NCBI GenBank assembly: GCA_964537135.1
Contig: CAZHZC010000013.1
Location: forward strand, 2,301 to 66,300
Source of the DNA: an uncultured Rikenella sp.
GTDB taxonomy: Bacteria; Bacteroidota; Bacteroidia; Bacteroidales; VadinHA17
Direction: 5' to 3'
DNA length: 64,000 nucleotides
The position numbers were made by a program, and so were the translations under genes. Position 1 is the first letter of the stretch. Every line of letters begins with the position of its first letter. This document shows positions 2,786 to 34,597 of this stretch, piece by piece. The notes under the pieces were generated by a model, which worked only from the letters and a program-made list of their open reading frames with translations, was not told the DNA's origin and made no database searches.

Positions 2786-3685
2786 ATGAAACCTACACTA
2801 ATGGTACTGGCTGCCGGCATGGGCAGCAGATATGGCGGCAACAAGCAGCTTGACCAGGTTGGACCCTCAGGAGAGACAATCATTGACTACTCAATCTACG
2901 ATGCCAAGAGGGCCGGTTTTGGAAAGGTGGTCTTTGTTATCAGGCGTGATATTGAGGAGCAGTTCAGGGAGACCTTTGTGGAGAGACTGAAGGATGTGAT
3001 AGAGATCGATTATGTCTTCCAGGAGCTGGGCAACCTGCCTGCCGGGTACACACTGCCAGAGGGACGTACCAAGCCGTGGGGCACCAGCCATGCCATTCTT
3101 GTCACCGAGCCCAAGATAGCTGAGCCGTTCGGCGTCATCAATGCTGATGACTATTACGGCTATGACGCCTTTAAGGTGCTCTACCGGTTTCTGACAGAAG
3201 ACAGCAATGATACCAACTACTGTATCATAGGTTACCGTCTGGGCAACACCCTCTCAGACCATGGCAACGTCAACCGTGGTATCTGCCGGGTGAGTGAGAG
3301 CGGCTACCTTGAGCATATGGTTGAGACACGCGGCATAGGTAAGAGCGGGAAGGGGATCTTTGCACCTGACGCTGACGGTAAGGTGAACCAATATACCGGT
3401 GATGAGGTGGTCTCAATGAACCTGTTTGGATTCAAGCCCTCGGTCTACAGATACCTCAACCTGGAGTTCAGTAATTTTCTCAGGGAGCGCATCAGCGACC
3501 CCAAGGCTGAGCTTGACATACCCACCTCACTGGACAAGTTTGTGAAGAAGGGTGAGATAACCATACAGGTGCTGAGGAGTGAGAGCCGGTGGTTTGGTGT
3601 TACCTACCGTGAAGACAGGCCATTTGTTGTTGAGAGCATAAGGAAGATGGTTGATCAGGGTCTCTACCCTGAGAAACTTTTCTAG
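2786..3685 (+). CDS. Sugar-phosphate nucleotidyltransferase family protein
   Basis: LAAGMGSRYGG, KPWGTSHA and INADDYYG motifs. Start moved to ATG 2786 (MKPTLMVL). Confidence 0.85.
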   Translation: MKPTLMVLAAGMGSRYGGNKQLDQVGPSGETIIDYSIYDAKRAGFGKVVFVIRRDIEEQFRETFVERLKDVIEIDYVFQELGNLPAGYTLPEGRTKPWGTSHAILVTEPKIAEPFGVINADDYYGYDAFKVLYRFLTEDSNDTNYCIIGYRLGNTLSDHGNVNRGICRVSESGYLEHMVETRGIGKSGKGIFAPDADGKVNQYTGDEVVSMNLFGFKPSVYRYLNLEFSNFLRERISDPKAELDIPTSLDKFVKKGEITIQVLRSESRWFGVTYREDRPFVVESIRKMVDQGLYPEKLF

Positions 3686-3789
3686 AAAGCTATTCTGAGA
3701 AGAAATTCCGGGAAGCAATTCCAAAAAGATATAGTGAGAAGCGGTTCCGGGCAGCTATTCCAGAAGCTGGTCTGAGAAGTAATCTTTCC
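3674..3789. repeat. Degenerate 13-nt tandem repeat, about 9 units (consensus ~AAGCWATTCYGRG)
   Basis: Units at 3674, 3687, 3700, 3713, 3726, 3739, 3752 (12 nt), 3764, 3777, e.g. aagctattctgag / aagaaattccggg / aagcggttccggg / aagctggtctgag. Confidence 0.7.
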
Positions 3790-3795
3790 GTCACT

Positions 3796-5511
3796 TCACC
3801 ACCTGAAGGTGCTTCGTACGATGGTCAGGTTATCAGCGTTGTCACTTACCCTCAGCTCAATCTCATGCAGCCTGTTGTCACTGATATAATTTTTGTCAGG
3901 CCGGTATATCAGCAGGTTGTTTTTTGAGTCGTACTCAGCCAGGGCCCACTGGCCATCGATATAGATATCGTAACTCTTTATTCCGGAGAAATCATCACGT
4001 ATGGTTGCGGTCAGCAATGACCTGCCAGACAGGTCAGCCCCACCGGCAAATGAGAAGCTGGCAGTGGGAGGGATGGTATCAATGGCAACGGTATAGTCGC
4101 CCAGGCTGCCTATCTGTCCGGTCACATACCCATCCTTGTAGGTTCCGCCCGCATAGATAAGGGTTCCCTTTCTGTTTATGCGTGCCAGTGACAGTTTACC
4201 TTCCATACCGGTGATGATGGTGTCAGGTCTTACTGAGAGTGTAGGCCGGGCATGGAGAGCCACCCTCTCATCATGTACCGAGTGTATGGGTGCCAGGTGT
4301 CGTGATGTTCCCCTCCGGGTGCTGTACCTGAGCCAGAGGGTGTCATAGAGGGCTCCTGCAGGGAAGTTAACCCTTAGCCCCTCTGCGGTGAAGCTGTCAG
4401 CCCTGCCCCAGGGTATCATCCGTGTATAGTCCGGCATGAAGGGAGGCAGTGGCGGTTCGGTCTGTGCCTTCACCCTGAAGGCTACTGTCGAGATGTTGTT
4501 ATGGGCATCACTGACCACAACCTTTATCTCATGCTCACTGTTGTCATTAAACCGCAGCACCCCGCGCCACAGGTGTCCGTCATACATCGAGAGCCTGTCT
4601 CCTGGCTGAATATAAAGTCTCTGGATATTCTCACCGGTAGTGGCCTTTGCCTCATAGTCGATATGTGCGTTGATATAACGTGTCTCACCGTATGAGAAGC
4701 GGTCTGCCCTCCAGCCAAAGACCCTCATGCCATCAGCATAGAGATCAATAGTATATGCACCACACCTGTTGTTGCTGTTGTCGAAGGTATCCCAGCACTT
4801 GATCCCAATACCTGTCTCACCATAAATCACTGGTACGGCATCAGCTGCCAGGCGGTATGAACCGTCACCCGGCGCCGTGCGGAGCGTCAGCTTCTGGTGG
4901 CTGTTGTTGACTGCTGATGAGCGGGAAATGGGGTAGATAACCACCTTCTCTATGACCGGCTTCCTGGTATCCTTAACCTCAAAGCCGAGGGTGAGCGGAT
5001 TTACCGGCTCCTCCGTGGCTGAGTCGCGTATCTCAAAGTGCAGGTGTGGCCCTGTGGAGCTTCCGCTGTTGCCTGACCACGCTATCACCTCACTGCGGCT
5101 GACAGTAAACTGATTCTTCCCGGGAAAAAGTGACACTGTGAAGCTTTTGCTACGATACTGATTCTCTTTGACATACTCCTCAATATCAGGACGAAAGCTG
5201 CGCAGGTGTGCATAGACCGAGGTGTAACCCGACGGGTGTCTTACATAGAGCGCCTTGCCGAACCCTCCGGGGCTGACCCCCACCCGGTATACATAGCCTT
5301 CATCAACGGCCAGCACCTCCCTTCCCTGTACACCACCGGTACGGTAATCGAGCCCTGAATGAAAATGATCAGACCTCAGTTCGGCAAAACTGGCAGAGAG
5401 AGACGGGATGCCACTCAGTGGGCTGACAAATGAAACCTCTCCCGATGATTGGGGGTATAGCAGTATGGAACATGACACTGCAATAACGAATAGTGTGATT
5501 CTTCCGGACAT
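3796..5511 (-). CDS. M23 family metallopeptidase with C-terminal extension
   Basis: Signal peptide; HFHSGLD (HxxxD) and GPHLHFE (HxH) zinc motifs. Confidence 0.9.
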   Translation of the reverse strand: MSGRITLFVIAVSCSILLYPQSSGEVSFVSPLSGIPSLSASFAELRSDHFHSGLDYRTGGVQGREVLAVDEGYVYRVGVSPGGFGKALYVRHPSGYTSVYAHLRSFRPDIEEYVKENQYRSKSFTVSLFPGKNQFTVSRSEVIAWSGNSGSSTGPHLHFEIRDSATEEPVNPLTLGFEVKDTRKPVIEKVVIYPISRSSAVNNSHQKLTLRTAPGDGSYRLAADAVPVIYGETGIGIKCWDTFDNSNNRCGAYTIDLYADGMRVFGWRADRFSYGETRYINAHIDYEAKATTGENIQRLYIQPGDRLSMYDGHLWRGVLRFNDNSEHEIKVVVSDAHNNISTVAFRVKAQTEPPLPPFMPDYTRMIPWGRADSFTAEGLRVNFPAGALYDTLWLRYSTRRGTSRHLAPIHSVHDERVALHARPTLSVRPDTIITGMEGKLSLARINRKGTLIYAGGTYKDGYVTGQIGSLGDYTVAIDTIPPTASFSFAGGADLSGRSLLTATIRDDFSGIKSYDIYIDGQWALAEYDSKNNLLIYRPDKNYISDNRLHEIELRVSDNADNLTIVRSTFRW

Positions 5512-21327: not shown

Positions 21328-23283
21328 GTGGGCGGCAGAATATCAATAACAGCTATCCTGATCCTGACACTGTCACTGTTGCAGCTGTCGGGTCAGGAGC
21401 TGCATACCCGTTCCAACAGAGCCCTCAAATACTATGATCTCGGTAAGCGCGACTACGAGCTGCTCTATTACAGCAGGGCAGAGAGCAACCTGAAGCTGGC
21501 GGTCAGGGAAGACAGCCGCTTCTATGAGGCTCATATCCTGCTCGGTCAGCTCTATACCGATACAGGTGAGTGGGAGGATGCTGTGACCCATTACCGGGCA
21601 GCAATCACCATCGACTCGCTCTTCTATCCTCCTGCACTCTTCAGCCTTGGCAGGGCTGAGCTTCGTACTGGCGACTACTACTCAGCCTCAATACATCTTG
21701 ATGCATACCTCAAACGACAAGGTAGCAGTGCCAGGCTGAGGAGGGAGGCTGAGAAGATGCTTGCTGACTGCCGGTTTGCCCTCGCCTACCCGGAGAGTGC
21801 CTTTGGTGTTGAACCGGTCAATGCCGGTGACTCGGTAAACAGTGAGCTGGATGAGTACTGGCCCACCGTGACCGGTGACGGCCAGATGCTGATATTCACA
21901 CGTGAGGTGAAACGCTCATCAGGCTATGGCCGCTCATACGGGCATGACAGGCAGGAGGACTTCTATATCAGCAGGTGGAACAGCAACGGCTACTGGGGGC
22001 GTGCACGCAATGCAGGGCCACCACTGAACACTGCAGGAAATGAGGGGGCACAATCAATATCTGCCGATGGCAGGTATATGTACTTCACCGCCTGTGACAG
22101 GAGTGACGGTCATGGCAGCTGTGATATCTACCTCTCTAAATTTGATGGTGTAAGATGGTCGCCGGGAAAGAATATTGGGTCACAGGTGAACACTTCATAC
22201 TGGGAGTCACAACCATCAATCAGCCCAAACGGACGTATGCTCTTCTTTGTCAGCAACCGGCCGGGCGGGCTGGGAGGGATGGATCTGTGGTATTCAGTCA
22301 TGGGCAGTGATGGCACCTGGGGTAATCCGGTCAACCCCGGAAAGAATATCAATACGGCAGGTGATGAGATATCTCCGTTTATCTACTTCAACGGCCGAAC
22401 CCTTTACTTCTCATCCAACGGGCGCGACTCATTCGGCGGATATGATATCTACTACTCAACCATGAACCGCGACTCATCCTGGAGCGTACCTGTCAATCTC
22501 GGCCCGGCAGTGAACACCCCGGCTGATGAGATGGGGCTGGTGATAGAGTCGTCAGGCAGAAGAGCCTATTTCTCGTCGGTACGTGACAAGAGGAGGGGGA
22601 AGGATATCTTCTATATTGACCTGCCACAGGAGATACAGCCTGAACAGGTGCTCTACTTCAAGGGAAGGGTGACCGACAAGGCTTCCAGCCAGCCTATTAT
22701 GGCCAGGTATGAGCTCACTGACCTTACCAGCAGAACGGAGGTGATAACTGATGAAACCGACAGTAACGGTGAATTCTTTGTATGCCTGCCGGAGGGGAGC
22801 AGCTATGGCCTCAATGTGACTGCTGCAGGATATATGATCTTCTCCGAGAATTTTGATTTTGCCGGCGGGTACAGCTCGGCCGAACCCTATCAAAAGATAA
22901 TTGCACTGAACCGGGTACGCGAAGGTGAGTTTATGAGGATGTATAACGTCTTCTATGACCATGACTCATCGGAGCTGCTGGAGACATCAATCCCTGAGCT
23001 GGAGCTGCTGCTTGAGTTCCTCACCATTAACAATACGGTGGTGATAGAGGTGGGAGGCCATACCGACTCTGACGGTACGGATGAGTACAACCAGAGGCTC
23101 TCCGAGAGAAGGGCCGCCTCCGTCAGGGAGTACCTGGTCAAGAGAGGTATAGAGAGCAGGCGTATCTTCTCACACGGCTATGGCGAGTCAGAGCCGGTGG
23201 CTGACAATGTGACCGAGGCAGGCAAACGCCTCAACAGACGTACCGAAATCACCATACTGTCAGAAGGTACCACCAAAAAATAG
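21328..23283 (+). CDS. TPR + PD40 beta-propeller + OmpA-like peptidoglycan-binding protein (PorE-like architecture)
   Basis: N-terminal TPRs; repeated INT..DE..P / DIY.S PD40 units; GHTDSDG..YN..LS..RA OmpA motif. Confidence 0.9.
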   Translation: MGGRISITAILILTLSLLQLSGQELHTRSNRALKYYDLGKRDYELLYYSRAESNLKLAVREDSRFYEAHILLGQLYTDTGEWEDAVTHYRAAITIDSLFYPPALFSLGRAELRTGDYYSASIHLDAYLKRQGSSARLRREAEKMLADCRFALAYPESAFGVEPVNAGDSVNSELDEYWPTVTGDGQMLIFTREVKRSSGYGRSYGHDRQEDFYISRWNSNGYWGRARNAGPPLNTAGNEGAQSISADGRYMYFTACDRSDGHGSCDIYLSKFDGVRWSPGKNIGSQVNTSYWESQPSISPNGRMLFFVSNRPGGLGGMDLWYSVMGSDGTWGNPVNPGKNINTAGDEISPFIYFNGRTLYFSSNGRDSFGGYDIYYSTMNRDSSWSVPVNLGPAVNTPADEMGLVIESSGRRAYFSSVRDKRRGKDIFYIDLPQEIQPEQVLYFKGRVTDKASSQPIMARYELTDLTSRTEVITDETDSNGEFFVCLPEGSSYGLNVTAAGYMIFSENFDFAGGYSSAEPYQKIIALNRVREGEFMRMYNVFYDHDSSELLETSIPELELLLEFLTINNTVVIEVGGHTDSDGTDEYNQRLSERRAASVREYLVKRGIESRRIFSHGYGESEPVADNVTEAGKRLNRRTEITILSEGTTKK

Positions 23284-23355
23284 AGCTAGGGCTGACCCAT
23301 AAGATCAGCCCTAGACATTCTTTTAACAGACAGATAGATAACTATCTCAAAAAAA

Positions 23356-24177
23356 TCAAATTGCCACCCGATCCTCTGATGAGGTGCCGGACAGTATCTT
23401 ATACCCTGAACACTCCTTAACCGGTAGTGAGACAAACACTGATGTGGCCTTGCCATCATCTGACTCAACCCTGATGGTACCCTCCATAGTGGAGATAAGA
23501 TTTCTGGCCAGGATTAAATTCATAGCGGAATAGGTATCCTGACTGTCGGATTGTCGGATTTCAGGATTGTCGGAAAGCAGCAGGTCTCTGCTTTTTGAAT
23601 AACCCTGGCCAGAATCTTTTACATACATTGTAATTATCTCATCACCGTAGGTGCACCCAACCTTAATAAACCCTGAAAAAGTGTGGTTGAGCGCATTCCT
23701 GAACAGATTGCTGACAATACGTGTCAGCCGTGCCGGATCAAGCTTCAGTATCAGCTTCTCAGGCAGATTGTCCTCATGAATGAGAACGACACTGTCGTGT
23801 CCCTTTTTCCCCATGTAAACCCTGAAATCTGAGGTTAGTGACTCGAACAGTGATGTTATATCAGTCTCACGGAGTTTCTCGCCTCCTCCGTTAACTGTTT
23901 TCAGTATTGCAGTATCAAAGTAGTTTTCAAACAGCCCTATCAGTTGTTCACATGATCGTATGATATGGTCACTGAACTCTCTTCTCTCTGCGTCAGTGAA
24001 CCGTTCATTGCCAATCAGGTGTGAGAACGCCATTATTGAGTTCATCTGGGTTCTGATCTCATGTGATACCCCAGCTATTATCTCCGGGTTGTTAATCATT
24101 CTGTCAAGCTTTTTACGCCCGGCTCTCCCTGCCTCACCTGTCTCCTTCATGAGGGCATTGCGAAGGATCTCGAACAT
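23356..24177 (-). CDS. Sensorless HisKA/HATPase histidine-kinase-like protein with degenerate G2 box
   Basis: H-box VSHEIRT, N-box SNLFRNA, G1 DSGQG; expected GLGL replaced by AMNL; no TM or sensor domain. Confidence 0.8.
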   Translation of the reverse strand: MFEILRNALMKETGEAGRAGRKKLDRMINNPEIIAGVSHEIRTQMNSIMAFSHLIGNERFTDAERREFSDHIIRSCEQLIGLFENYFDTAILKTVNGGGEKLRETDITSLFESLTSDFRVYMGKKGHDSVVLIHEDNLPEKLILKLDPARLTRIVSNLFRNALNHTFSGFIKVGCTYGDEIITMYVKDSGQGYSKSRDLLLSDNPEIRQSDSQDTYSAMNLILARNLISTMEGTIRVESDDGKATSVFVSLPVKECSGYKILSGTSSEDRVAI

Positions 24178-24289
24178 ATGATTACCTGTTTAATTACACT
24201 TTCTTCTTCAGCCTGCAGCTTACTCAGCTTACTCTTGCCAAACTCTGCGCTTCGTTGAGCTCTGTTTTGTACTACATTATAGCTCTGAC

Positions 24290-25039
24290 CTACCTCATCC
24301 TGCGGGCCAGCCGTGCCGCCTTTTTTGCGTAGCGGCTTCCCGAGGCAGCTATCGCTTCGAACTGGGTGACAGCCTTCTCCCTGTTATCGGTCATCATATA
24401 GCAGAGTCCCAGATACCATGAAGCATCTTCGAGGTAGAGGTTATCATTGTGATCAATCACACTACGGAATGATCCGCTGGCCTGCTGGTAATTCTTTATC
24501 TCCATATTGGCCATCCCGTGCATGAACACCGGTTCCATCTCCTTCTGCCCCTTGTCTATCAGCTGCTCCAGGCAGACTATTGCCTTCTCATACTCCCTGG
24601 CATTGTAGGAGGCCATGGCATCCTGCATCAGTGTATTGTCAGTGGTCTCTGCCGATCTCACTGCTCCCTGCAGCTCATACCGTGCATAGTTGGCCAGCAG
24701 CAGCTCTTCCGGTGATGAGCCGGGCCTCATAATAAGGTACAGGGCTGCCGTCACCAGCGCTGCGACAGCTACTGCCGCCGCATACCTGCCGGCGCGCACG
24801 AGGCCCCGCCGTACTCTCTCTGCCGAGCGTTTTTTACTGTCAAGGTGTATAAGCTTCCTGCGCAGCTCAAGCAGACCGCTGTCTGCCAGTATCTCATCAC
24901 TCTTCTGCCTCAGGGCAGCCTCACGTTCAGCCGACAACGAATCATTTGTCAAATCAGTGAGCCATGAGTTAACCGCCCTGCCGGGTTTACCTGCAAGGTG
25001 CTGGTAGTCCGGGTTGTTTGCGTTATTCCTTTTCATCAT
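24290..25039 (-). CDS. Single-pass membrane TPR protein, putative anti-sigma factor
   Basis: About 85-aa basic N-terminus, TM helix RYAAAVAVAALVTAALYLIM, C-terminal TPR-like repeats (Y...EYEKAI..L, A.WYLGLCY); close to CHAT and ECF sigma genes. Confidence 0.7.
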   Translation of the reverse strand: MMKRNNANNPDYQHLAGKPGRAVNSWLTDLTNDSLSAEREAALRQKSDEILADSGLLELRRKLIHLDSKKRSAERVRRGLVRAGRYAAAVAVAALVTAALYLIMRPGSSPEELLLANYARYELQGAVRSAETTDNTLMQDAMASYNAREYEKAIVCLEQLIDKGQKEMEPVFMHGMANMEIKNYQQASGSFRSVIDHNDNLYLEDASWYLGLCYMMTDNREKAVTQFEAIAASGSRYAKKAARLARRMR

Positions 25040-25133
25040 ATTGTGTTTTACACAGTTAATATCCGTTCAACTCTCTGTTGTGTGCCACCTGGTGGAGAGA
25101 GCCGGCAACAATGCCCCTCTCCCTGCCAGCAGC

Positions 25134-25196
25134 TCAATATATCACTCTTCCCCAGCCCAATATCACTCCCCCCGGCCCAATATCACTCCCCGCTGC
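25134..25196. repeat. 20-nt tandem repeat, 2 near-perfect plus 1 degenerate copy (CCCAATATCACTCCCC)
   Basis: Identical 16-mers at 25156-25171 and 25176-25191; degenerate copy at 25134-25153. Confidence 0.85.
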
Positions 25197-25512
25197 TCTG
25201 CGTCATTTTCCTCTGTCACCGGACCATGCACCAGTAAAATTCTGGTAACATGCCAGTTCCTTCCACCTGCCGGTTTTTCCGTAGCTCAGCCACCACACCC
25301 TTTGCCGGTATCACTGCGTACCGCACCTCTCCGGGAGTATGGCCCCGGCTCTCTCTTCCGGGCCCTTCACCCGCTATGGGTTATGGCGTGGCTCTCTCTA
25401 CTGCCACTCTTCCCCCGTTTCCCGGATCACCCGGTAAGGCCTGTGCAGCCCTTTACCACCGGGTATAGCTTAAGACTGGCCCAGCCAGCCTTCGCTATGA
25501 ACAGATATCAGA

Positions 25513-25659
25513 TCAGATCTCAATAATTATCGGAGGCAGGGTCGGACCTATAGGGCCACCCGGGATTGGCTTGGTACCGCCACGAAGGTTAATCATCTCT
25601 TCATTTGAAAGAACAAACTCAGCAAGCTTTTCAATTTTCAGGGTTTCCATCTTTTTCAT
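25513..25659 (-). CDS. 48-aa double-glycine-leader peptide precursor, MKKMETLKIEKLAEFVLSNEEMINLRGG|TKPIPGGPIGPTLPPIIIEI (not in the ORF track)
   Basis: Hand-translated ATG 25659 to TGA 25513-25515. Leader fits L(-12)S-x-x-E-hydrophobic(-7)-x-x-hydrophobic(-4)-x-GG. AT-rich upstream region; C39 exporter 4 kb away. Confidence 0.85.
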   Translation of the reverse strand: MKKMETLKIEKLAEFVLSNEEMINLRGGTKPIPGGPIGPTLPPIIIEI

Positions 25660-25697
25660 AATTAATTAATAAATCAGGGTTTAATTGCGTTTACATC

Positions 25698-25730
25698 AAT
25701 ACGTACCCAAAAGGGGCGTTTTGTGACACA
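25698..25730 (-). promoter_or_regulatory. Candidate ECF-type promoter for the peptide gene (TGTGTCACA-N18-CGTATT)
   Basis: Bipartite motif resembling ECF -35/-10 elements, ending 38 nt upstream of the ATG; no TAnnTTTG box seen close to the start. Confidence 0.45.
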
Positions 25731-25824
25731 AAAAAACGAACTATTTTTAATTTAATTTATATTATGCTCATTAACTGCTACATACAATTACTCTTTTGTG
25801 ACTGTTTAAGAGTCTGATCTTTTA

Positions 25825-25832
25825 TATTTTTG
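25825..25832 (+). promoter_or_regulatory. -7 promoter box (TATTTTTG) for the CHAT gene
   Basis: TAnnTTTG, 27 nt upstream of ATG 25860. Confidence 0.55.
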
Positions 25833-25859
25833 CAGTCTGAAGCTAGAAGAACCACTTTG

Positions 25860-28800
25860 ATGAGTCAGAAGAGAGCCATACTGACCCTGATTTTTATTGT
25901 CTGCTGCCAATTTGTTGTCATGACGGAAGCGCCGGCGAAGGGAGCTGTTGACGGTCAGGTTACGGACCTTATAAGACTGCGTCAGCTGACCGACACCCTC
26001 TCAGGTATCCTTGAAGGGGGCAGAACCGAAAGTGACCCGGCGGCCTGTGTGACCGAGATCGAAAGAATATTGTTGACGGGTACCGTTACCGATACACTGG
26101 CCCTATCGGACGCTTTCTACTATACCGGCATTCACCATTTTCAGTCCAACAGATTCTCCAGTGCCTCCAAATCCTTCGCCCGATCGCTACGGTTCCGTGA
26201 AGCTCTCAGTCTGACAGACCGCCGCTATTCAACCGGCTACAGCAATCTGGCGGCATCACTGGCCAGGGAGGGCGACTATGAAGCTGCCCGTCAGGCAGGA
26301 ATCAGGGCGCTGGAGGTGAGGAGGCTCACCTCCGGATCCGACTCATCGGGTCTGGCTAATACCTATCTCAACCTGGCCAGTATATCGTCACAGCTGAATG
26401 ATAATGAACAGGCGATTGTGATGGCTGAGGCCGGACTGGAAATTGCACGTCTCTTCCCGCGAAAGGTCAGTGAGAAGGTGGTTGCCGACCTGTACCATGT
26501 AATAGGTCTGAGTCTGTATAATATAAATGAATACAACAAGTCACTTGCCTACTGCCGGCAGGCCCTCACCATTTACGATCGTCAGCAGGATGCCGGCATC
26601 GATTCGCGGATACTGATTCACAACACCATAGCCCTGATCTACCAGGCTGTGGGTCAGCCCGGTGAGAGTGAACACTATCTGCGTCGCGGGCTGGCCATAG
26701 AGGATGGGGCTGAAACACAGGACAAGTACCTTCTCTATCTGAATTATGCACGACTGCTTGAGGAGATGGGGAGGGTTGATGAGGGTGAGAGGCTTCTTGA
26801 GAGAGGGGTTGAGCAGGCGAGCCGCAGCTTTGGGGGAGCCAGCCGGCAATACTTCACAATGCTTGTAGGCCTGGCAGCCTTTGTTGATCAGAGCCTGCAT
26901 GACCATGTACGCTCACTGGCTCTCTATGACAGCTGCTTCTCATATGTACGCCATAACCCGTGGGACCATATAATGCGAAAGTTTGTCACGGCAGCCTATG
27001 CCACCGCACTCTACTCAGCCGGCAGGTATAAGGAGCTGCTGGAGGTGACTGAGGAGGAGGCTGCACTGCCACAGGCATCATACGAGTGGAGATACAACAG
27101 GACAGCAGACAGTAGAGCTACAGACAGAAGTGTTGCAGATGGCAGGGCTACAGATGGGAGAGTTGCAGATGGCAGAGCTGCGGACAGAAGAGTTGCAGAT
27201 GGCAGGGCTACTGATGAATGGGTTACAGACGGCATGACAGGCGAAAATGGCAGGATCTCAGCCAGTGACCTGGCAATACTGAACCTGAGATATGCCTCGC
27301 TCAATGCTCTGTCAGCCAGCAGCAGTGACACCCTGCTCATCAGGAAGGCCATCGCCACAGGCCGTCAGCTCACCTCAATCTATGATCGTCGCAGGCTGGA
27401 GATGACTGATGATGAGAGTCGTACCAATCTGAGCTCCTCATCAAGGGATGTCTATACCGGCCTGGTAGGCAACTATGCCGCCCTTTACAATGAGGGTGCT
27501 GCCCCGGGGCTGGTCAGTGCCTTTTTTGAGTTCACAGAGAGAAGCAAGATGGCGGGATTTCTCTCTTCCATACGTGAGGTTAATGCTGCCCGCTTCTCAC
27601 TGCCAGTGGAGCTGGTCACGCTCGACGCCACCATACGCAGCCAGACAGGGCTCTATCGTGAGCTGATAGCGAGGGAAGAGATCAGGGCAGCACCCGACAC
27701 ACAACGGCTGGCTACATGGGAAGGACTGATATTCAGGCTGGTCAGGTCTCGTGACTCACTGATACGTCTCTTTGAGGAGGAGTATCCGGCCTACTACAAC
27801 CTGAAATACAGAAGTGAGGTGACCCCCTCTACAAACATAACGAGGGTGATAGGGCGCCACTCAAACCTACTCAGCTATGTGCTGACCGAGACGAAGCTCT
27901 ACACCTTTGTGGCCAACCAGAGACACCAGGAGATCATCACCCATGATATTGACAGCTCCTTTATAGCATCACTCTACCGGTTTCGTGAGCTGCTAACCAC
28001 CATGCCACGTACCAGTGATACCCGTGCCCCCTTCAATGAATATATGGATCTGGCCTACAGCCTTTACCGTGTGCTCCTTGAGCCGGCCCTGCCTTATCTC
28101 AGGGGTGACAAGATTGTTATCTCTCCTGACAATATTCTCTCATATATCCCTTTTGAGGCGCTGGTTACCGAGGAGTTTCGCAGCCAGGAGATGCTCTACC
28201 GTGATGCGCCCTTCGCACTGAAGAGATTCCGCTTCTCATATATCTATAGCGTTACCCTCTCATCGGAGACGATGGAGAGGAGCAGGAGGTTCAATAACCG
28301 GGTAGCTGCATTCGCACCCTCATATTCAGCGATGGAGATTGCTGACTCACTGCTGGTATCATGGCCCACCCTGCGGAGCAATATAAGAGAGCTGCCCTAC
28401 GCCCTGCTGGAGGCAGAAGATGTGGTGAGGCAGTGTGGCGGCACAGCCTTCCTGGGAGAGGAGGCGGGTGAAGAGAGATTCAAGCGGGAGGCGGCAGGCT
28501 ACAAAATAATACACCTGGCAACCCATGCCCTGGTTGATGACCGGCAGCCGGCATTCTCAAAGATACTGTTTGCCGGAGGTGACAAGAGCGAAGATGGTAT
28601 GCTCAATACCTATGAGATATACAGCATGCACCTCAATGCCATGCTGGTGGTACTCAGCTCATGCAATACCGGTGTGGGGAGGCTGGTCAGTGGTGAGGGG
28701 ATACTGAGCCTCGCCCGCGGATTCCTCTATGCCGGCAGCCGCTCGGTGGTGATGTCAATGTGGGAGGTGGAGGATGTGTCTGCCTCGTTGGTAACACACT

Positions 28801-29042
28801 CATTTTACAGGAATATGAGGGCGGGGCAGACCAAGAGTGCGGCACTGCGCAGTGCCAGGCTACGCTTCCTGCGGGAGGCAGACCAGACCCGGTCACACCC
28901 CTACTACTGGGCAACACTGGTAATCTATGGTGATGACACACCACTGTGGTATAACCATATCACTCTTTACCTGTCACTGCTGGGGGTGCTGGCTGCCGGC
29001 ACGGTACTTATGGCTCTCTATTACAGAGGGCCAAGGTCATGA
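25860..29042 (+). CDS. TPR-CHAT (caspase-like, peptidase C14 clan) protease with signal peptide and C-terminal TM anchor
   Basis: N-terminal hydrophobic signal; TPR repeats; ISPDNILSYIPFEAL; catalytic His in IIHLATHA and Cys in VVLSSCNT; SMWEVED and HPYYWA motifs; C-terminal LYLSLLGVLAAGTVLMALYY. Confidence 0.93.
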   Translation: MSQKRAILTLIFIVCCQFVVMTEAPAKGAVDGQVTDLIRLRQLTDTLSGILEGGRTESDPAACVTEIERILLTGTVTDTLALSDAFYYTGIHHFQSNRFSSASKSFARSLRFREALSLTDRRYSTGYSNLAASLAREGDYEAARQAGIRALEVRRLTSGSDSSGLANTYLNLASISSQLNDNEQAIVMAEAGLEIARLFPRKVSEKVVADLYHVIGLSLYNINEYNKSLAYCRQALTIYDRQQDAGIDSRILIHNTIALIYQAVGQPGESEHYLRRGLAIEDGAETQDKYLLYLNYARLLEEMGRVDEGERLLERGVEQASRSFGGASRQYFTMLVGLAAFVDQSLHDHVRSLALYDSCFSYVRHNPWDHIMRKFVTAAYATALYSAGRYKELLEVTEEEAALPQASYEWRYNRTADSRATDRSVADGRATDGRVADGRAADRRVADGRATDEWVTDGMTGENGRISASDLAILNLRYASLNALSASSSDTLLIRKAIATGRQLTSIYDRRRLEMTDDESRTNLSSSSRDVYTGLVGNYAALYNEGAAPGLVSAFFEFTERSKMAGFLSSIREVNAARFSLPVELVTLDATIRSQTGLYRELIAREEIRAAPDTQRLATWEGLIFRLVRSRDSLIRLFEEEYPAYYNLKYRSEVTPSTNITRVIGRHSNLLSYVLTETKLYTFVANQRHQEIITHDIDSSFIASLYRFRELLTTMPRTSDTRAPFNEYMDLAYSLYRVLLEPALPYLRGDKIVISPDNILSYIPFEALVTEEFRSQEMLYRDAPFALKRFRFSYIYSVTLSSETMERSRRFNNRVAAFAPSYSAMEIADSLLVSWPTLRSNIRELPYALLEAEDVVRQCGGTAFLGEEAGEERFKREAAGYKIIHLATHALVDDRQPAFSKILFAGGDKSEDGMLNTYEIYSMHLNAMLVVLSSCNTGVGRLVSGEGILSLARGFLYAGSRSVVMSMWEVEDVSASLVTHSFYRNMRAGQTKSAALRSARLRFLREADQTRSHPYYWATLVIYGDDTPLWYNHITLYLSLLGVLAAGTVLMALYYRGPRS
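27105..27254 (+). repeat. In-frame 30-nt (10-aa) tandem repeat inside the CHAT gene
   Basis: Units start at 27105, 27135, 27165, 27195, 27225: ADSRATDRSV / ADGRATDGRV / ADGRAADRRV / ADGRATDEWV / TDGMTGENGR. Confidence 0.9.
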
Positions 29043-29587
29043 TATTCGGGATCTGTCCTGATGATCTCCATCAGAGCCTCCTTGCACAGATATTTTTTAC
29101 GGCGGGCATAAGCCTCACTGCCGAGATTCATGCGGCGGGCAATCTCTTCGTAGGTGTGTCCTTCACTGAACAGGTTTAGAATCATCTGGCAGTCAGCCTT
29201 CAACAGCGCAAATGAACGCATCACTATGCGCTCCATGATAGCCTGGCTGATAAGGTCATCATCACGTGAGTCGACCGGCTCAGAGATGATCGGTTCAAGC
29301 TTCGAACGGTGTTGAAGCAGCTTGGTCCAGACAATACGTGCCATACCAAAGAAGTAACCTTTAAGGTCACCGGCTACCTGCAGTCTTCCGCCGGTCACCT
29401 TACGGTAGAAAAATACAATCGTCTCCTGAAACACCTCATGCACATCATCATCTGTGGCACCATTTTTCAGGAGATAGTCACGTACCATACCGAACCAGTT
29501 ATCATAGAGGTATGAAAGGATGCGGTTGTCCTGCCTCCTTATCCCATCAATGATGTCAGAATCCGAATACTTTCTGAATAAGCCCAA
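29021..29587 (-). CDS. ECF (sigma-70 group 4) RNA polymerase sigma factor
   Basis: Region 2 (DDVHEVFQETIV, GYFFGMARIVW) and region 4 (CQMILNLF.EGHTYEEIA..M); TTG start; TATATTTG box at 29605-29612; overlaps the CHAT 3' end by 22 nt (convergent). Confidence 0.9.
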   Translation of the reverse strand: MGLFRKYSDSDIIDGIRRQDNRILSYLYDNWFGMVRDYLLKNGATDDDVHEVFQETIVFFYRKVTGGRLQVAGDLKGYFFGMARIVWTKLLQHRSKLEPIISEPVDSRDDDLISQAIMERIVMRSFALLKADCQMILNLFSEGHTYEEIARRMNLGSEAYARRKKYLCKEALMEIIRTDPEYHDLGPL

Positions 29588-29726
29588 ACCGGCGATTTAA
29601 TTGACAAATATACAATTTCCGCAATCGATTTCTGAAAAGTGCGCTTCAGTAGCTCTTTCTTGCCCCATGGAAGTGTGTCACATTTATTTTGGATATATTT
29701 GCAACGGTTCATCTCCTCACAATTAT

Positions 29727-31910
29727 ATGGCGTACCCCTTTGTCAGACAACATGATGCAATGGACTGCGGGCCTGCCTGCATCAGTATGGTGGCACAGTG
29801 GCACGGCAAGCACTTCTCACTGGAGACTATCAGACAGAAGGCCTGGATCACCCGGCAGGGTGTCTCAATGATGGGTCTCAGCCAGGCTGCCGTGAGCATG
29901 GGGTTGACTGCTGTAGGGGTGAAGATACCTTTCAGCAGGCTGCGGAGTGATGCTCCCCTGCCAGCAGTGGCACACTGGCAGCAGAATCACTTTATTGTTG
30001 TCAACAGGATCAGTGACAGGATGGTATGGGTCAGTGACCCGGCCATCGGTCGTATCAGGATGAGCCATGATGAGTTTCTTAGGGGCTGGAGTACGGGCGA
30101 GAGAGAGGGTGAGAGGGAGGGTATGGCACTGCTGCTCACCCCGGGGCCCGGCTTCACCGATCAGCCTGATGACCCGCCTGCACGTAGCAGCTTTCGCTTC
30201 CTGCTGCCCTACCTGAAGTCCTATCGCAGACAGATCATATGGCTGTTTGCCGGACTGATAGCCTCAAGCGCCATACAGCTGGTCTTTCCCTTCCTCACCC
30301 AGGCAATAATAGACAGGGGGATAGCAGCACGTGACATACGTCTTATCTGGCTGATACTGGCCGGGCAGCTGGCACTGACGGCCGGCAGGATGGCTGTGGA
30401 GTTCAGTCGCGGCTGGCTGCTGCTTCACCTCGGCACACGGCTTAACATCAGGATAGTCTCTGACTTCCTGGCAAGGCTGATGGGGCTCCCCATCGCCTAC
30501 TTCGACACCAAGCTTAACGGTGATATCCTGCAGCGTATAGATGACAACAGCAGGGTAGAGGAGTATCTGACCTCCTCGAGCCTTACCATACTCTTCTCGC
30601 TCTTTAATTTTGTCATATTTGGTATTGTGCTGGGCATATATAGTATACCGGTACTGCTAGTATTTGTCTCCGGCACAGCACTCTATATCCTCTATGTCAC
30701 CCTCTTCATGCCTGCCCGTGAGCGGCTGGACAACAGGCGTTTTATGCAGATGGCTGAGGCGGGCAACAGGATCATCAACATTGTCAACGGGATGCAGGAG
30801 ATAAAGCTGGCAGGTAATGAGGCAGCCAACAGGCTTGAGTGGGAGAAGCATCAGAGAGAGGTTTACTCAACCCGGATCAGGGGGATGCGGATAATGCAAT
30901 TCCAGACAGCCGGCGGAACACTTATCCATGAGTCGGTAAACGTGATTATCACAATCATATCTGCCACACTGGTAATTGGCGGCTCAATGACCCTGGGGAT
31001 GATGCTGGCGGTACAGTTTATCACCGGCCAGCTGAATGGTCCGGTATCACAGATAGTGAGCCTGATGAGAGCGACACAGGATGCACGTATAAGCCTTGAA
31101 CGTATCAGTGAGGTGCATGAGATGACCTCCGAGACTGAAGATGATCAGCAGAAGGCAGCTATGCCTGCTGACGCGCCGGTGACCATCAGGGAGCTCTCAT
31201 TCAGGTATGAGGGGCCCGGCTCGCCATGGGTGCTGCATCGCCTCAACCTCAACATACCGGCCGGACGTATCACTGCTGTGGTGGGCGAGAGCGGGTCAGG
31301 AAAGAGTACCCTTCTTAAGATGCTTCTGGGCTATTACCGACCCGTTGAAGGAGAGATACTGATAGGGGGGAGGAGGCTGGAGGAGATATCTGTCTCATCA
31401 CTGAGAGAGAATACCGGTGTGGTGATGCAGGAGGGGTATATCTTCCCCGATACCATTCTGGGTAATATTGCCCCCGGTGAAGATGAGCCTGTGATGGAGA
31501 GGGTTGAGAGAGCCATTATGACTGCCAACCTCACACCACTGATAGAGATACTCCCGGCAGGCCTCAATACGATGGTGGGGCAGGGCGGTCACGGACTGAG
31601 CCAGGGACAGAAACAGCGGATACTGATAGCACGGGTGGTCTACAAGGAGCCGTCACTGCTGCTGCTTGATGAGGCTACCAGTGCCCTTGATGCCTCCAAT
31701 GAGAGAGTGATTGTTGAGAACCTGGCACAGTTTTATGCAGGACGAACGGTGGTGGTGGTGGCTCACCGGCTGAGCACGGTACGCCATGCTGACAACATAG
31801 TGGTGCTTGATCAGGGAAGGGTGACCGAGGAGGGTACCCACGATCAGCTCACCGCCCTCAGAGGTACATACTACAGGCTCATAAGAGACCAGCTGGAGCT
31901 GGGAGCCTGA
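29727..31910 (+). CDS. Peptidase-containing ABC transporter (C39 peptidase + TMD + NBD), double-glycine peptide exporter
   Basis: QHDAMDCG (Cys), NHFIVV (His), SDPA (Asp); Walker A GESGSGKST, signature LSQGQ, Walker B LLLLDE. Start set to ATG 29727, with TATATTTG at 29694-29701. Confidence 0.95.
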   Translation: MAYPFVRQHDAMDCGPACISMVAQWHGKHFSLETIRQKAWITRQGVSMMGLSQAAVSMGLTAVGVKIPFSRLRSDAPLPAVAHWQQNHFIVVNRISDRMVWVSDPAIGRIRMSHDEFLRGWSTGEREGEREGMALLLTPGPGFTDQPDDPPARSSFRFLLPYLKSYRRQIIWLFAGLIASSAIQLVFPFLTQAIIDRGIAARDIRLIWLILAGQLALTAGRMAVEFSRGWLLLHLGTRLNIRIVSDFLARLMGLPIAYFDTKLNGDILQRIDDNSRVEEYLTSSSLTILFSLFNFVIFGIVLGIYSIPVLLVFVSGTALYILYVTLFMPARERLDNRRFMQMAEAGNRIINIVNGMQEIKLAGNEAANRLEWEKHQREVYSTRIRGMRIMQFQTAGGTLIHESVNVIITIISATLVIGGSMTLGMMLAVQFITGQLNGPVSQIVSLMRATQDARISLERISEVHEMTSETEDDQQKAAMPADAPVTIRELSFRYEGPGSPWVLHRLNLNIPAGRITAVVGESGSGKSTLLKMLLGYYRPVEGEILIGGRRLEEISVSSLRENTGVVMQEGYIFPDTILGNIAPGEDEPVMERVERAIMTANLTPLIEILPAGLNTMVGQGGHGLSQGQKQRILIARVVYKEPSLLLLDEATSALDASNERVIVENLAQFYAGRTVVVVAHRLSTVRHADNIVVLDQGRVTEEGTHDQLTALRGTYYRLIRDQLELGA

Positions 31911-31922
31911 CAGGTGGCGGTG

Positions 31923-32117
31923 TCACTCCTTATCAGGATCTTTTCCGGAATATGGCTCATAGTCATCAGGCTTCTCCCGTGGACTCTCCTTCCTCTTTTC
32001 CCCTCCGGTGACATTACCATCGCTGCCAGACCTTCTCTTTTTTTGCATATTTCTATATGCCAGATAACCGGCCAGAGCAGTAAGCAACAGGATAAGAATG
32101 AACTGCATGGTTTCCAT
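31923..32117 (-). CDS. Small single-pass membrane protein (64 aa), unknown function
   Basis: N-terminal TM, basic stop-transfer, charged tail; own TAAATTTG box at 32144-32151. Confidence 0.65.
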   Translation of the reverse strand: METMQFILILLLTALAGYLAYRNMQKKRRSGSDGNVTGGEKRKESPREKPDDYEPYSGKDPDKE

Positions 32118-32302
32118 AAATTCAGAATATCAAACCCGATTGACAAATTTAAACTTTTTGACAATCAGAAGCTATTCATTCCCATTTAATTCAGGTATAG
32201 GTTTGACTTTTGCTAATATTCCATTATTTTCGTGGTTTGAAAAAAGGAGGTGAGCTGCACGCCTCCCGCCATTGGCGAAGCACTGAAGAAAAGGGATTTG
32301 AA

Positions 32303-34597
32303 ATGACAACAAAAGATCCGGAAAACTCTGTTCATAATGAACAATTCAATGACCCTGACAGGAACATTGAATCTATGGAGAATAACGATATACCGGTAAC
32401 TGCTCCGGAAGATACTGCTGAAGAGAGAGTTGCTCCACCGGCAGAGGAGAGCGGGGGCGGTGAGCCAAAGACAGCCGCTGAAGAGGAAAAACACCGGGAG
32501 GAGCAGAATGAGCCCGGAGAGAAGGAGGAGAATGAGACTGAGGAAAAGAAGGCGGAGGCTGTAGATCAGGTCGAAGGTGACGCTGAGGAGAAGAAGGCGG
32601 AGGCTGTAGATCAGGCTGAAGAGAAGGATACTGTCGATCAGGCTGAAGAGGAGAAAAAGGGTGATACTGATGAGAAGACTGTCGATCAGGTCGAAGGTGA
32701 AGCTGAAGGGAAGGTTGTAGATCAGACTGAAGAGAAGGATACTGTAGATCAGGCTGAAGAGGAGGAAAAGGATGATACTGATGAGAAGACTGTAGATCAG
32801 GTCGAAGGTGAGGCTGAAGAGAAGGAAGAGGAGGAGGAGGAGCTCAATTACGATGAGATAGAGCTGCCACCGGTAGATTATAGCGGCTTCTCAAGAAAGG
32901 AGCTGGTAGAGACCCTCGCCCTCATAGTGGAGAACAGGCCGCCAGCGGAGATCATTGATGATGTCAGCCGTATCAAGGAGCTCTTCTACAAAAAGAGCAA
33001 GGCTGAATTCAACGAGCGCAGGCTCGAATTTGCCAAGGAGGGTGGTAATATTGAAGATTACAGGCCTGAGCCTGATGAGCTGGAGGGTGAGATAAATACC
33101 ATTCTGCAGACCTACCGCAGTCGCAGAAGTGACTTCATTAAGGTTCAGGAGAGCGAGAAGCAGGAGAACCTGAAAAAGAAGCTGGATATCATTGAGCAGA
33201 TTAAGGATCTGGTAAACCGTGAGGAGGCAATAAACAAGACCTTCCAGGAGTTCAGGAACCTGCAGAATGCCTGGCATGCCATAGGCATCGTGCCACAGCC
33301 GGCAGTGAAAGATCTGTGGGAGAACTATCATCACAGCGTAGAGATATTCTATGACTATATAAAGATAAACCGTGAGCTGAGAGACCTGGACTTGCGTAAA
33401 AATCTCGAAGTCAAGGTATTACTATGTGAGAAGGCTGAGGAGCTGCTTCTTGAGCCCAATGCTGTGGCAGCCTTCAAGCAGCTGCAGGAGTACCACAACC
33501 AGTGGCGTGAGGTGGGTCCGGTACCGCATGAGCACAAGAATGAGATTTGGGAGCGGTTCCGTGAGGCTACCTCAAAAGTAAACAAGAGGCACCATGAGTT
33601 CTTTGAGAAGCAGAAGGATGAGCAGAAGCGTAACCTGGAGGCCAAGACCGAGCTGTGTAAGAGGGTTGAGGAGATAGCTGCCGGCGAGATACTCACTTTT
33701 GCCGATTTCAGGGAGAAGTCAGAGGCGATCCTGGAGGCTCAGAAGCTGTGGAAAACGATCGGGTTTGCTCCCAGGAAACATAATAACAAGATTTATCAGC
33801 GTTTCAGGGCAGCATGTGACACCTTCTTCGAAAAGAAGCGCACCTTTTTTGCCGAGAACAAGGAGACACAGGTGAGAAACCTGCAGCTCAAGACAGAGCT
33901 CTGTCTCAAGGCTGAGGCGCTGCAGGAGGGTACCGACTGGAAGGAGACCTCTGACATGCTGATAAGGCTTCAGAAAGAGTGGAAAGAGATCGGACCGGTA
34001 CCTAAAAAATATTCAGACAAGATATGGAAGCGGTTCCGAAGGGCATGCGACACCTTCTTTACCCGTAAGTCTGAATACTTCACCGGCCGTGACTCATCAT
34101 ACGAAGATAATCTCAATGCCAAACTGGCCATACTGGATGAGCTTGACCAGTTTGACCCGGGGGAGGATCTCAGGGCCGGGTTTGAACAGCTGAAGGATAT
34201 ACAGAAGCGATGGACTGATATAGGTTTTGTGCCATACAACAGGAAAGAGGAGATAGCACGGCGATACAAAGAGGCGCTGAACAGGCAGTTTGACAGGCTG
34301 AAACTTGATGATGAGGACAAAAATATTCTCAGATATCGTAGCAAGATTGACAGTGCCAGGTCAAACCCGCGCACCGCAAGGAAGGTGAGAGGTGAACGTG
34401 AGAAGTTCTACAGCAAAATCAGACAGCTGGAGAGTGATATTGTCCTTTGGGAGAACAATATAGGCTTCTTTGCAAAGTCGGCCAACGCTGACAGTATGAT
34501 AAAAGAGGTCGAAGAGAAGATAGCCAGCGCCAAAAGAGAGATAAAGATGCTCGAAGAGAAGGTGAGGCTGATTGATAACTCTATGTATGAGGAGTAG
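32303..34597 (+). CDS. DUF349 domain-containing protein with acidic repetitive N-terminus
   Basis: Repeated W..IG.VP......IW.RFR.A.D.FF units. Start set to ATG 32303. Confidence 0.88.
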   Translation: MTTKDPENSVHNEQFNDPDRNIESMENNDIPVTAPEDTAEERVAPPAEESGGGEPKTAAEEEKHREEQNEPGEKEENETEEKKAEAVDQVEGDAEEKKAEAVDQAEEKDTVDQAEEEKKGDTDEKTVDQVEGEAEGKVVDQTEEKDTVDQAEEEEKDDTDEKTVDQVEGEAEEKEEEEEELNYDEIELPPVDYSGFSRKELVETLALIVENRPPAEIIDDVSRIKELFYKKSKAEFNERRLEFAKEGGNIEDYRPEPDELEGEINTILQTYRSRRSDFIKVQESEKQENLKKKLDIIEQIKDLVNREEAINKTFQEFRNLQNAWHAIGIVPQPAVKDLWENYHHSVEIFYDYIKINRELRDLDLRKNLEVKVLLCEKAEELLLEPNAVAAFKQLQEYHNQWREVGPVPHEHKNEIWERFREATSKVNKRHHEFFEKQKDEQKRNLEAKTELCKRVEEIAAGEILTFADFREKSEAILEAQKLWKTIGFAPRKHNNKIYQRFRAACDTFFEKKRTFFAENKETQVRNLQLKTELCLKAEALQEGTDWKETSDMLIRLQKEWKEIGPVPKKYSDKIWKRFRRACDTFFTRKSEYFTGRDSSYEDNLNAKLAILDELDQFDPGEDLRAGFEQLKDIQKRWTDIGFVPYNRKEEIARRYKEALNRQFDRLKLDDEDKNILRYRSKIDSARSNPRTARKVRGEREKFYSKIRQLESDIVLWENNIGFFAKSANADSMIKEVEEKIASAKREIKMLEEKVRLIDNSMYEE
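32540..32825 (+). repeat. In-frame nested repeats (45-nt and 111-nt periods) encoding acidic VDQ(A/V)EE units
   Basis: GTAGATCAG anchors at 32561, 32606 (+45) and 32717 (+111); the 37-aa unit is nearly identical in both copies. Confidence 0.9.

Follow-up and report, generated by a model that had tools for sequence, protein, structure and literature searches.

A candidate split, CHAT-controlled ECF sigma factor module with a GG-leader peptide output in uncultured Bacteroidales

We analysed a locus between 23.3 and 31.9 kb of a 64,000-nucleotide stretch of DNA (contig CAZHZC010000013.1 of assembly GCA_964537135.1; the whole stretch is referred to as the window). It originates from an uncultured Bacteroidales lineage whose public metagenome-assembled genomes carry the label Rikenella or Rikenellaceae and which derives from bioreactor, sludge and digester metagenomes. 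The locus comprises seven features (Table 1): a soluble histidine kinase (HK) gene, the gene of a 249-residue single-pass transmembrane (TM) protein with tetratricopeptide repeats (TM-TPR protein), a spacer, an open reading frame (ORF) for a peptide with a double-glycine (GG) leader, a gene for a TPR-CHAT protein, the gene of a sigma factor of the extracytoplasmic function (ECF) type and an ATP-binding cassette (ABC) exporter gene. We propose that the sigma factor, the anti-sigma-like TM-TPR protein and the TPR-CHAT protein form a three-part envelope signalling module with the peptide as its output, a reading to which we give slightly better than an even chance. The first-pass annotation of this DNA overlooked two constituents of the locus, the soluble histidine kinase of the peptide operon and the C39 ABC exporter.

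Sigma factor, TM-TPR and CHAT genes form a recurrent triad

Two sets of related loci were compared with the window. The orthologous set comprised about 80 loci from 80 species-level genomes; its synteny was not counted towards functional linkage, since the housekeeping genes on the flanks are equally syntenic. The distant set consisted of 80 metagenomic loci with relatives about 35-48% identical to a distant-relative query, and one looked-up locus. In addition, a profile search for the TM-TPR family covered 1.84 billion representative proteins and revealed at least 212 clusters (50% identity) at E ≤ 1e-30, sharing one architecture: the N-terminal module is of the IExYLxGEL... type and is followed by a TM helix, the motif YYxPYxxxGxxRS and a TPR domain with DNLFIEQAEWYLGLCYL at its end.

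For the anti-sigma question, the distant set proved informative. In 23 of the 31 short relatives with upstream room, a sigma factor gene of the same family ends within a few bases of the TM-TPR start or overlaps it, which, judged by the layout of the genes, is a classic sigma/anti-sigma operon. Among the loci that extend at least 5 kb to each side, a sigma factor gene was present in 18 of 19 and a CHAT gene likewise in 18 of 19, a kinase in 9/19 and an exporter in 3/19. No GG-leader ORF was found in these core loci, and CHAT therefore goes with the sigma factor and the TM-TPR protein, not with the peptide.

The 188-residue sigma factor matched TIGR02937 over residues 27-167 with E=1.9e-7, at 30.9 bits, below the curated cutoff of 42.9. 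Its family profile matches ECF structures near full length (positions ~2-168), among them E. coli sigma-E (1or7, at 3e-6), SigL and SigH, and the protein belongs to the ECF (group 4) sigma-70 factors. Its C-terminal DPEYQDLGPL hardly varies among the closer relatives, and the opposite strand at this place codes for the RGPRS tail of CHAT.

The topology of the TM-TPR and CHAT proteins was predicted from hydropathy and the positive-inside rule. Domain searches of the 249-residue protein returned TPR matches only, at residues ~140-233, and hydropathy gave a single TM segment (residues 86-104) with a net charge of +5 just before and -1 after it. The cytoplasmic N-terminus has 18 lysines and arginines and 11 acidic residues (net charge +7). 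The first-pass annotation had described a short basic N-terminus, one TM segment and an external TPR domain; all of this stands apart from the word short, as the N-terminus spans 85 residues. The protein has the predicted N-in single pass of a membrane anti-sigma factor, and in the distant relatives, though not in the window clade, its gene also lies beside an ECF sigma factor gene as expected of one.

Co-variation within the orthologues was analysed with mirror-tree residuals, background divergence being regressed out with three flanking genes. The TM-TPR N-terminus correlated with the sigma-2 region at r=0.79; the value was 0.67 when the window lineage and tier 2 were left out, so that only tier 1 remained. 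With sigma-4 the value was 0.32 (0.58 without the window lineage and tier 2) and with the kinase 0.23 (0.01 in tier 1 alone). Furthermore, in the lineage of the window and locus L062, the TM-TPR N-terminus (ratio 0.60), sigma-2 (0.77) and the -10 element of the peptide promoter diverged together, which the controls did not. Peptide-core distances did not correlate with CHAT, TM-TPR or any other tested part.

Gene order in the distant relatives, the triad of sigma factor, TM-TPR and CHAT, and the co-evolution of the N-terminus with sigma-2 together make it likely that the 249-residue protein is the cognate anti-sigma factor, as the first-pass annotation had supposed.

TM-TPR variants of about 500 residues carry three to four tandem cytoplasmic N-terminal modules before the TM segment (P0255, P0261, P0273 and others; loci L093, L108, L131 and L156). 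These are usually preceded by a GG-peptide gene, not by a sigma factor gene. Upstream of a long TM-TPR gene in locus L158, GG-leader peptide genes occur as a tandem array of four (2975-3920), and their short acidic cores are nearly identical.

The probable peptide operon and its promoter

The housekeeping -7 box TAnnTTTG is enriched in the window (39 occurrences against 19 expected; 0 of 100 shuffles reached 39). Its distribution over the genes was determined by counting TAnnTTT[G/A] within ~150 nt upstream in the ~80 orthologous loci. A box precedes the sigma factor gene in 81 of 81 loci, always with the strict G (81/81), the exporter gene in 76/76 (strict G in 10/76) and the CHAT gene in 67/73 (strict G in 22/73), most CHAT and exporter boxes being TAnnTTTA. 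It was found before the peptide gene in only 7 of 72 loci, before the 249-residue protein gene in 8/66 and before the kinase gene in 2/71. The boxes reported earlier for CHAT and sigma are thus present in the window and conserved, whereas the claim that each gene is separately promoted holds for CHAT, sigma and the exporter and fails for the TM-TPR gene.

In the window clade the sigma factor gene carries the housekeeping box only, and a conserved -35/-10-like motif precedes the peptide gene instead. Across the orthologues this motif reads TGTCACAAA-N16-YGTA and lies 40-49 nt upstream of the peptide gene. It gave 70 matches over the 73 loci with a detected peptide gene, about one per locus, always upstream of that gene and nowhere else in the 20-kb loci. 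An inverted repeat (TGTCA...TGACA), as for the site of a dimeric regulator, was considered for the same segment and rejected: the second half-site is lost in the window and in L062, while the YGTA element is kept.

A search of the distant loci with the window-type promoter pattern gave no relevant matches. Alignment of their upstream regions revealed a different motif, GGTTACCTTTT-N11-GGAATAA, whose GT(C/T)AC-N16 geometry is that of the window motif. It was found before sigma factor genes (10 cases), matching the usual autoregulation of ECF factors, and, in 17 cases, 52-60 nt ahead of the ATG of a GG-peptide gene, as well as before some kinase genes and the gene of a secreted protein of about 420 residues. 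Since one motif precedes both the sigma operon and the peptide genes in the distant loci, the peptide promoter would be of the sigma factor's own type, and the prediction of the first-pass annotation that the peptide is a sigma-dependent output is supported, also by the unique conserved ECF-type promoter and the lack of a housekeeping box at the window-type peptide gene. The ~420-residue protein adjoins CHAT in two peptide-less relatives (L092, 12921-14204, minus strand; L121, 12302-13552, minus strand). It has a C-terminal sorting domain of the type IX secretion system (T9SS) type, dockerin-like repeats and the promoter motif GGTTACC...GGAATTA, and looks like an alternative output of the module.

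The peptide, TM-TPR and kinase genes appear to form a single operon transcribed from a non-housekeeping promoter, because none of the three has a -7 box of its own, the spacer is transcribed, and the sole strong minus-strand terminator lies 3' of the kinase gene, with nothing comparable between the three genes. The TM-TPR and kinase genes are adjacent in every orthologous locus extending that far. In three metatranscriptomes, low-depth contigs cover the kinase gene, the 249-residue protein gene, the 3' end of the peptide gene and the spacer, and one contig spans the start codon of the 249-residue protein. The candidate anti-sigma gene follows the peptide gene, has no -7 box of its own and lies behind a transcribed spacer; transcription from the same sigma-dependent promoter is therefore probable and would make for negative feedback. 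The earlier idea of a constitutively expressed sensor consequently survives in part, for CHAT and sigma with their housekeeping boxes, but not for the candidate anti-sigma factor.

The spacer between the peptide and TM-TPR genes is 470 nt long in the window against ~190-210 nt in most relatives, and contains a 20-nt direct repeat (25139-25191) and an 18-nt inverted repeat (25088-25105 / 25345-25362). The extra length and the repeats suggest a small insertion. The peptide mRNAs have conserved 5' leaders: TAAACCCTGAATTA in the window clade (25660-25700, minus strand) and a near-invariant leader of ~55 nt upstream of the peptide genes in a distant clade (L093-L164), which hints at control at the RNA or translational level.

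The TPR-CHAT protein and its candidate substrate

The TPR-CHAT protein is 1060-1070 residues long, depending on the start (25830 or 25860). The TTG at 25830 sits inside the CHAT TAnnTTTG box, so the real start is probably the ATG at 25860. The protein matches PF12770 (E=1.5e-59) and TPR_12, and its best CHAT-domain match among solved structures is DdvA (PDB 8rot/8rw5, E=3.6e-4). Both HLATH histidines (H885/H889) and the SSCNTG cysteine (C935) are invariant in 71 orthologues, making it a CHAT-domain protein with the catalytic His-Cys dyad. By hydropathy and flanking charges, the protein has a start rich in K and R and then a hydrophobic segment; ~1000 residues further on comes a second such segment, and YYRGPRS forms the tail. 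Only short stretches precede the first and follow the last hydrophobic segment. The N-terminal segment is kept in 67/71 orthologues and the C-terminal TM segment in 71/71. The body is therefore predicted to be extracytoplasmic whether or not the first segment is cleaved, in agreement with the periplasmic placement in the first-pass annotation.

The annotated convergence of the CHAT and sigma genes and their 22-nt overlap (29021-29042) were confirmed. The same 22 nt overlap in closer relatives; in farther ones the two genes are convergent and the overlap is not always present. There is no terminator between them, and mutual antisense read-through is possible. The CHAT gene of the window also contains an in-frame 30-nt tandem repeat (27105-27211; 3.3 copies, 10-residue units of the RATDRSVADG type), located between the TPR and CHAT halves and absent from 70 orthologues (alignment conservation 0.07, residues 401-450).

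On the side of the TM-TPR protein, the juxtamembrane residues Y118, Y121, E122, G125, R128 and S129 are nearly invariant. In AlphaFold models they lie in a low-confidence coil (pLDDT<50), 14-25 residues outside the membrane and hence in the place where a site-1 cut would be expected. That CHAT is the site-1 protease of the TM-TPR protein would fit their common compartment (CHAT being on the TPR side of the TM-TPR protein), the invariant dyad, the co-occurrence of the triad without the peptide and the disordered juxtamembrane motif. This assignment, already made in the first-pass annotation, follows the analogy with known systems, and we advance it tentatively, at somewhat less than an even chance.

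The GG-leader peptide and its exporter

The first 29 residues of the peptide precursor match TIGR04149 with 26.5 bits against a cutoff of 25. By homology, translation probably starts at ATG 25650 (METL...), and the mature product is predicted to be TKPIPGGPIGPTLPPIIIEI, a proline-rich peptide of ~20 residues. A peptide gene was found in 73 of the 74 related loci spanning the interval between CHAT and TM-TPR. The cores are 9-22 residues long, free of cysteine and proline-rich or acidic; their N-terminal end is variable and their C-terminal end conserved (PTRPPVIIEI type in closer relatives). The exporter matches Peptidase_C39 (E=2.5e-34) and has the DCGPAC motif, so that both constituents of TIGR04149 GG-leader/PCAT export, a GG leader and a C39 exporter with catalytic cysteine, are present. 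TIGR04149 bears the family name "rSAM-modified RiPP" (radical-SAM-modified ribosomally synthesized and post-translationally modified peptide); no radical-SAM/SPASM maturase was found in the locus, the only nearby radical-SAM gene being a syntenic housekeeping gene (~206 residues) beyond an OmpA/PD40 gene. The locus likewise encodes no outer-membrane export partner, and the peptide may for this reason act in the periplasm.

Proposed mechanism and alternative explanations

We propose that housekeeping TAnnTTTG promoters supply the sigma factor, CHAT and the C39-ABC exporter, and that at rest the cytoplasmic 85-residue N-terminus of the TM-TPR protein binds sigma. A periplasmic cue, probably perceived through the TPR arrays, would switch on the His/Cys dyad of CHAT, which would cut the TM-TPR protein within the unstructured juxtamembrane YxxYExxGxxRS (residues 118-129). 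Intramembrane proteolysis would follow and free the sigma factor. Free sigma would act at TGTCACAAA-N16-CGTA and drive one operon providing the GG-leader peptide, new anti-sigma factor (negative feedback) and the soluble kinase. The exporter would cleave after GG and deliver a proline-rich peptide of ~20 residues at least to the periplasm. Comparative genomics leads us to infer that sigma and anti-sigma factor are a pair and that the peptide operon depends on sigma, whereas the CHAT cleavage of the anti-sigma factor, the site-2 step, the stimulus and the role of peptide and kinase are proposed by analogy only. The circuit might even be autoinducing, in that the exported peptide would bind the TPR array of CHAT or of the anti-sigma factor, CHAT would destroy the anti-sigma factor and sigma would make more peptide, but we regard this extension as distinctly unlikely.

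Several observations weigh against the proposed module. In the window clade, 4.5 kb separate the sigma factor gene from the TM-TPR gene and the two belong to different transcription units, an unusual arrangement for cognate partners. The TM-TPR N-terminus matched no known anti-sigma domain in Pfam (22 N-termini, E ≤ 10), and two profile searches against PDB sequences returned no anti-sigma factor, the best match being a Nif11 leader at 0.004. Similarity to class I anti-sigma domains (anti-sigma domain, ASD, or zinc-binding anti-sigma domain, ZAS; zf-HC2, RskA, RseA_N, FecR N-terminus) was not detected; the pattern IExYLxGEL...ExxF resembles ASD helix 1 by eye only, and the module has no CHCC ligands. 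AlphaFold2 folded residues 1-110 into two long helices with low confidence (predicted TM-score, pTM, 0.30), and the full-length model is likewise of low confidence (pLDDT 62). The topology derives from hydropathy alone, and the C-terminal hydrophobic segment and basic tail of CHAT could in principle be a sorting signal. The RNA evidence consists of a few low-depth unstranded contigs, and CHAT and sigma transcripts were not seen. The mirror-tree comparison of CHAT with the periplasmic part of TM-TPR showed no specific signal beyond the general rate correlation. Finally, because the related taxa compared number about 30 and the co-acceleration was seen in one lineage event, we consider the co-variation results supportive, not decisive.

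The pairing and the peptide output could be right and CHAT nevertheless not be the site-1 protease. It would then be a periplasmic sensor or scaffold, or a protease acting elsewhere (on itself, on the exported peptide or on further proteins of the envelope), and sigma would be freed by another protease or by a conformational change. The missing CHAT-specific co-variation is consistent with such a role, as is the fact that CHAT is always its own transcription unit; moreover, DdvA dyad mutants were wild-type-like in unstimulated cells and no cleavage was seen (PMC11506125). The invariant dyad, however, speaks for catalysis, CHAT is kept with sigma and TM-TPR in peptide-less loci, and a conserved disordered juxtamembrane motif is exposed by the candidate substrate in the same compartment, so that we hold this alternative to be unlikely.

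A different partner for the TM-TPR N-terminus has also to be weighed. The protein could be one half of a split two-component sensor, the sensing half in the membrane, and control through its cytoplasmic N-terminus the soluble kinase encoded directly downstream, sigma being regulated otherwise. The 19-30 nt between the two genes in almost all orthologous loci extending that far, the kinase in 9/19 distant loci, sometimes with the same promoter motif, and the failure to detect a known anti-sigma domain would all agree with it. Yet the 23 of 31 short distant relatives that follow or overlap the sigma factor gene have no kinase beside them, and the N-terminal residuals track sigma-2, not the kinase; we therefore consider a split sensor very unlikely. 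More improbable still is that the locus is mainly a bacteriocin or RiPP cluster, with sigma as pathway activator and CHAT and TM-TPR serving peptide maturation or self-immunity. Such a cluster would explain the TIGR04149 leader match next to a C39 exporter and the divergence of the peptide cores between species, but the locus has no maturase, the cores are short, cysteine-free and proline-rich or acidic, and the triad occurs without peptide or exporter.

Features of the locus and neighbouring genes

The coordinates of the features are given in Table 1. Just 3' of the exporter gene, a 64-residue ORF with one hydrophobic segment (31923-32117, minus strand) has a counterpart of 58-73 residues at the same position in the three relatives with inspected gene calls. 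The locus is flanked by the gene of a DUF349 protein (32210-34597, plus strand), the N-terminal region of which is long, acidic and repetitive (EEKKAEAVDQ-type repeats); this gene, syntenic in all relatives, probably has nothing to do with the locus. An Rfam scan of 23000-32500 gave a chance miRNA match only, PADLOC found no match beyond generic TPR and ATPase models, and the genes called in the locus and in its relatives include no cas genes.

Table 1. Features of the locus, with positions in the window; aa, amino acid residues; pep, peptide precursor gene.
Feature	Position	Strand	Remarks
Terminator-like hairpin	23286..23314	-	strong (13-bp stem + T-run), 3' of kinase gene; probable end of the pep-TM-TPR-HK unit
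Soluble histidine kinase (HK)	23356..24177	-	HisKA + HATPase_c, H-box SHEIR; lacks a TM segment; follows the TM-TPR gene directly
249-aa single-pass TM-TPR protein, candidate anti-sigma factor	24290..25039	-	
Parts of the TM-TPR protein	24785-25039 (cytoplasmic part)		cytoplasmic aa 1-85; TM aa 86-104; periplasmic TPR aa ~136-249
TM-TPR juxtamembrane motif	24653-24688	-	Y118-x2-YE-x2-G-x2-RS129; conserved, disordered in the model
Spacer between pep and TM-TPR gene	25040..25512	-	transcribed, without TAnnTTTG box
GG-leader peptide precursor (pep), 48-aa ORF	25513..25659	-	TIGR04149; leader end LRGG
ECF-type promoter-like motif	25700..25728	-	TGTCACAAA-N16-CGTA; 40-49 nt upstream of pep start codon
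TAnnTTTG (-7 box) of CHAT gene	25825..25832	+	27 nt before ATG 25860
TPR-CHAT protease (predicted), membrane-anchored, periplasmic	25860..29042	+	TPR_12, CHAT, His/Cys
Parts of the CHAT protein			signal/anchor aa ~6-24; HLATH H885/H889; Cys935; C-terminal TM aa ~1034-1052; basic tail
ECF-type sigma factor, 188 aa	29021..29587	-	sigma-2 + sigma-4; convergent with CHAT
TAnnTTTG box of sigma factor gene	29605..29612	-	conserved as GGAAATnnTATATTTG; 17 nt before TTG start
TAnnTTTG box of ABC exporter gene	29694..29701	+	25 nt before ATG 29727
Peptidase-C39 ABC exporter (PCAT)	29727..31910 (alternative start 29601)	+	DCGPAC catalytic-Cys motif; predicted leader-cleaving peptide exporter

Comparison with known systems

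In the RseA/DegS/RseP-sigma-E pathway, a single-pass, N-in anti-sigma factor receives a periplasmic site-1 cut followed by an intramembrane cut, and the anti-sigma gene is controlled by the sigma factor. The locus described here resembles it in predicted topology, in the proposed order of the two cuts and in the probable sigma control of the candidate anti-sigma gene. It differs in that the candidate site-1 protease is a caspase-like CHAT protein and not a serine protease of the HtrA type, and in that the anti-sigma domain is not recognisably RseA-like or ZAS-like. The output side recalls Gram-positive ComC/ComAB pheromone export, which uses a GG-leader peptide together with a C39 ABC exporter. 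A double-glycine leader, an exporter with catalytic cysteine and short variable cores are shared with such systems in general (TIGR04149 peptides; bacteroidetocins, PMC6671954; ComC/ComAB), whereas here the locus has no rSAM maturase and no HlyD or TolC partner, the core is cysteine-free, and transcription would start from an ECF-type promoter tied to the proposed CHAT/anti-sigma sensor. If the autoinducing circuit existed, it would be an ECF-based pheromone or self-signalling system gated by a caspase-like protein, would occur widely in Bacteroidota and would use peptide cores specific to each species.

The closest relative in logic is DdvA-DdvS of Myxococcus xanthus, in which an ECF sigma factor is likewise under a single-pass membrane protein and a large periplasmic TPR-CHAT part with a His-Cys dyad is proposed to make the site-1 cut. 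DdvA is a periplasmic TPR-CHAT protein fused to an anti-sigma domain, for which a self-cut before RseP was proposed and cleavage was not observed; DdvA-like proteins were found only in Myxococcota and one Comamonas (PMC11506125). In DdvA the zinc-binding anti-sigma domain, the TM segment and TPR-CHAT form one polypeptide, and autoproteolysis is proposed to occur in trans within the dimer. In the locus described here, in contrast, the sigma-binding candidate and TPR-CHAT are separate proteins, CHAT is almost devoid of cytoplasmic sequence and no CHCC zinc site is present in the TM-TPR N-terminus, so that the system is not of the DdvA type. The proposed output is an exported peptide instead of CBASS/CRISPR and the phylum is Bacteroidota. 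Craspase offers the other parallel: the Csx29 CHAT protease cleaves the sigma inhibitor Csx30 and thereby frees an ECF-like sigma factor (PMC10028731). There too, a TPR-CHAT protease acts in trans on a separate inhibitor of an ECF-like sigma factor and the cut relieves inhibition (Cas7-11/Csx29-Csx30-CASP-sigma). Craspase is, however, cytoplasmic, RNA-guided and CRISPR-associated, while the present system is predicted to be extracytoplasmic and membrane-anchored and no CRISPR genes were seen in the locus; it is thus not a type III-E craspase, in which Csx29 is bound to Cas7-11 and activated by RNA in the cytoplasm.

Our literature search for CHAT together with ECF and anti-sigma factors found only DdvA, craspase and related CRISPR work, and CHAT goes unmentioned in the main text of the paper that reclassified the ECF factors. 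CHAT-controlled ECF signalling of the kind proposed here, a split and periplasmic form in Bacteroidota that drives an operon for a GG-leader peptide, was not described in the literature searched. Bacteroidota have the most ECF sigma factors per genome of any phylum, about 22 (PMC7826278), and for most of these the signal is still to be found. The analysis defines a recurrent three-gene module of ECF sigma factor, candidate TM-TPR anti-sigma factor and predicted periplasmic TPR-CHAT protein across many Bacteroidota genomes, with outputs that seem to vary by locus between GG-leader peptides with an exporter and a T9SS-type secreted protein. If the proposal is right, the module would supply a defined set of promoter, sigma factor and anti-sigma factor for Bacteroidota genetics. 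Should CHAT be the site-1 protease, caspase-like control of sigma factors would exist in three forms: fused and periplasmic in DdvA, cytoplasmic and RNA-guided in craspase, and split and periplasmic in the system described here. The split form would be the easiest of these to test, since protease and substrate are separate proteins.

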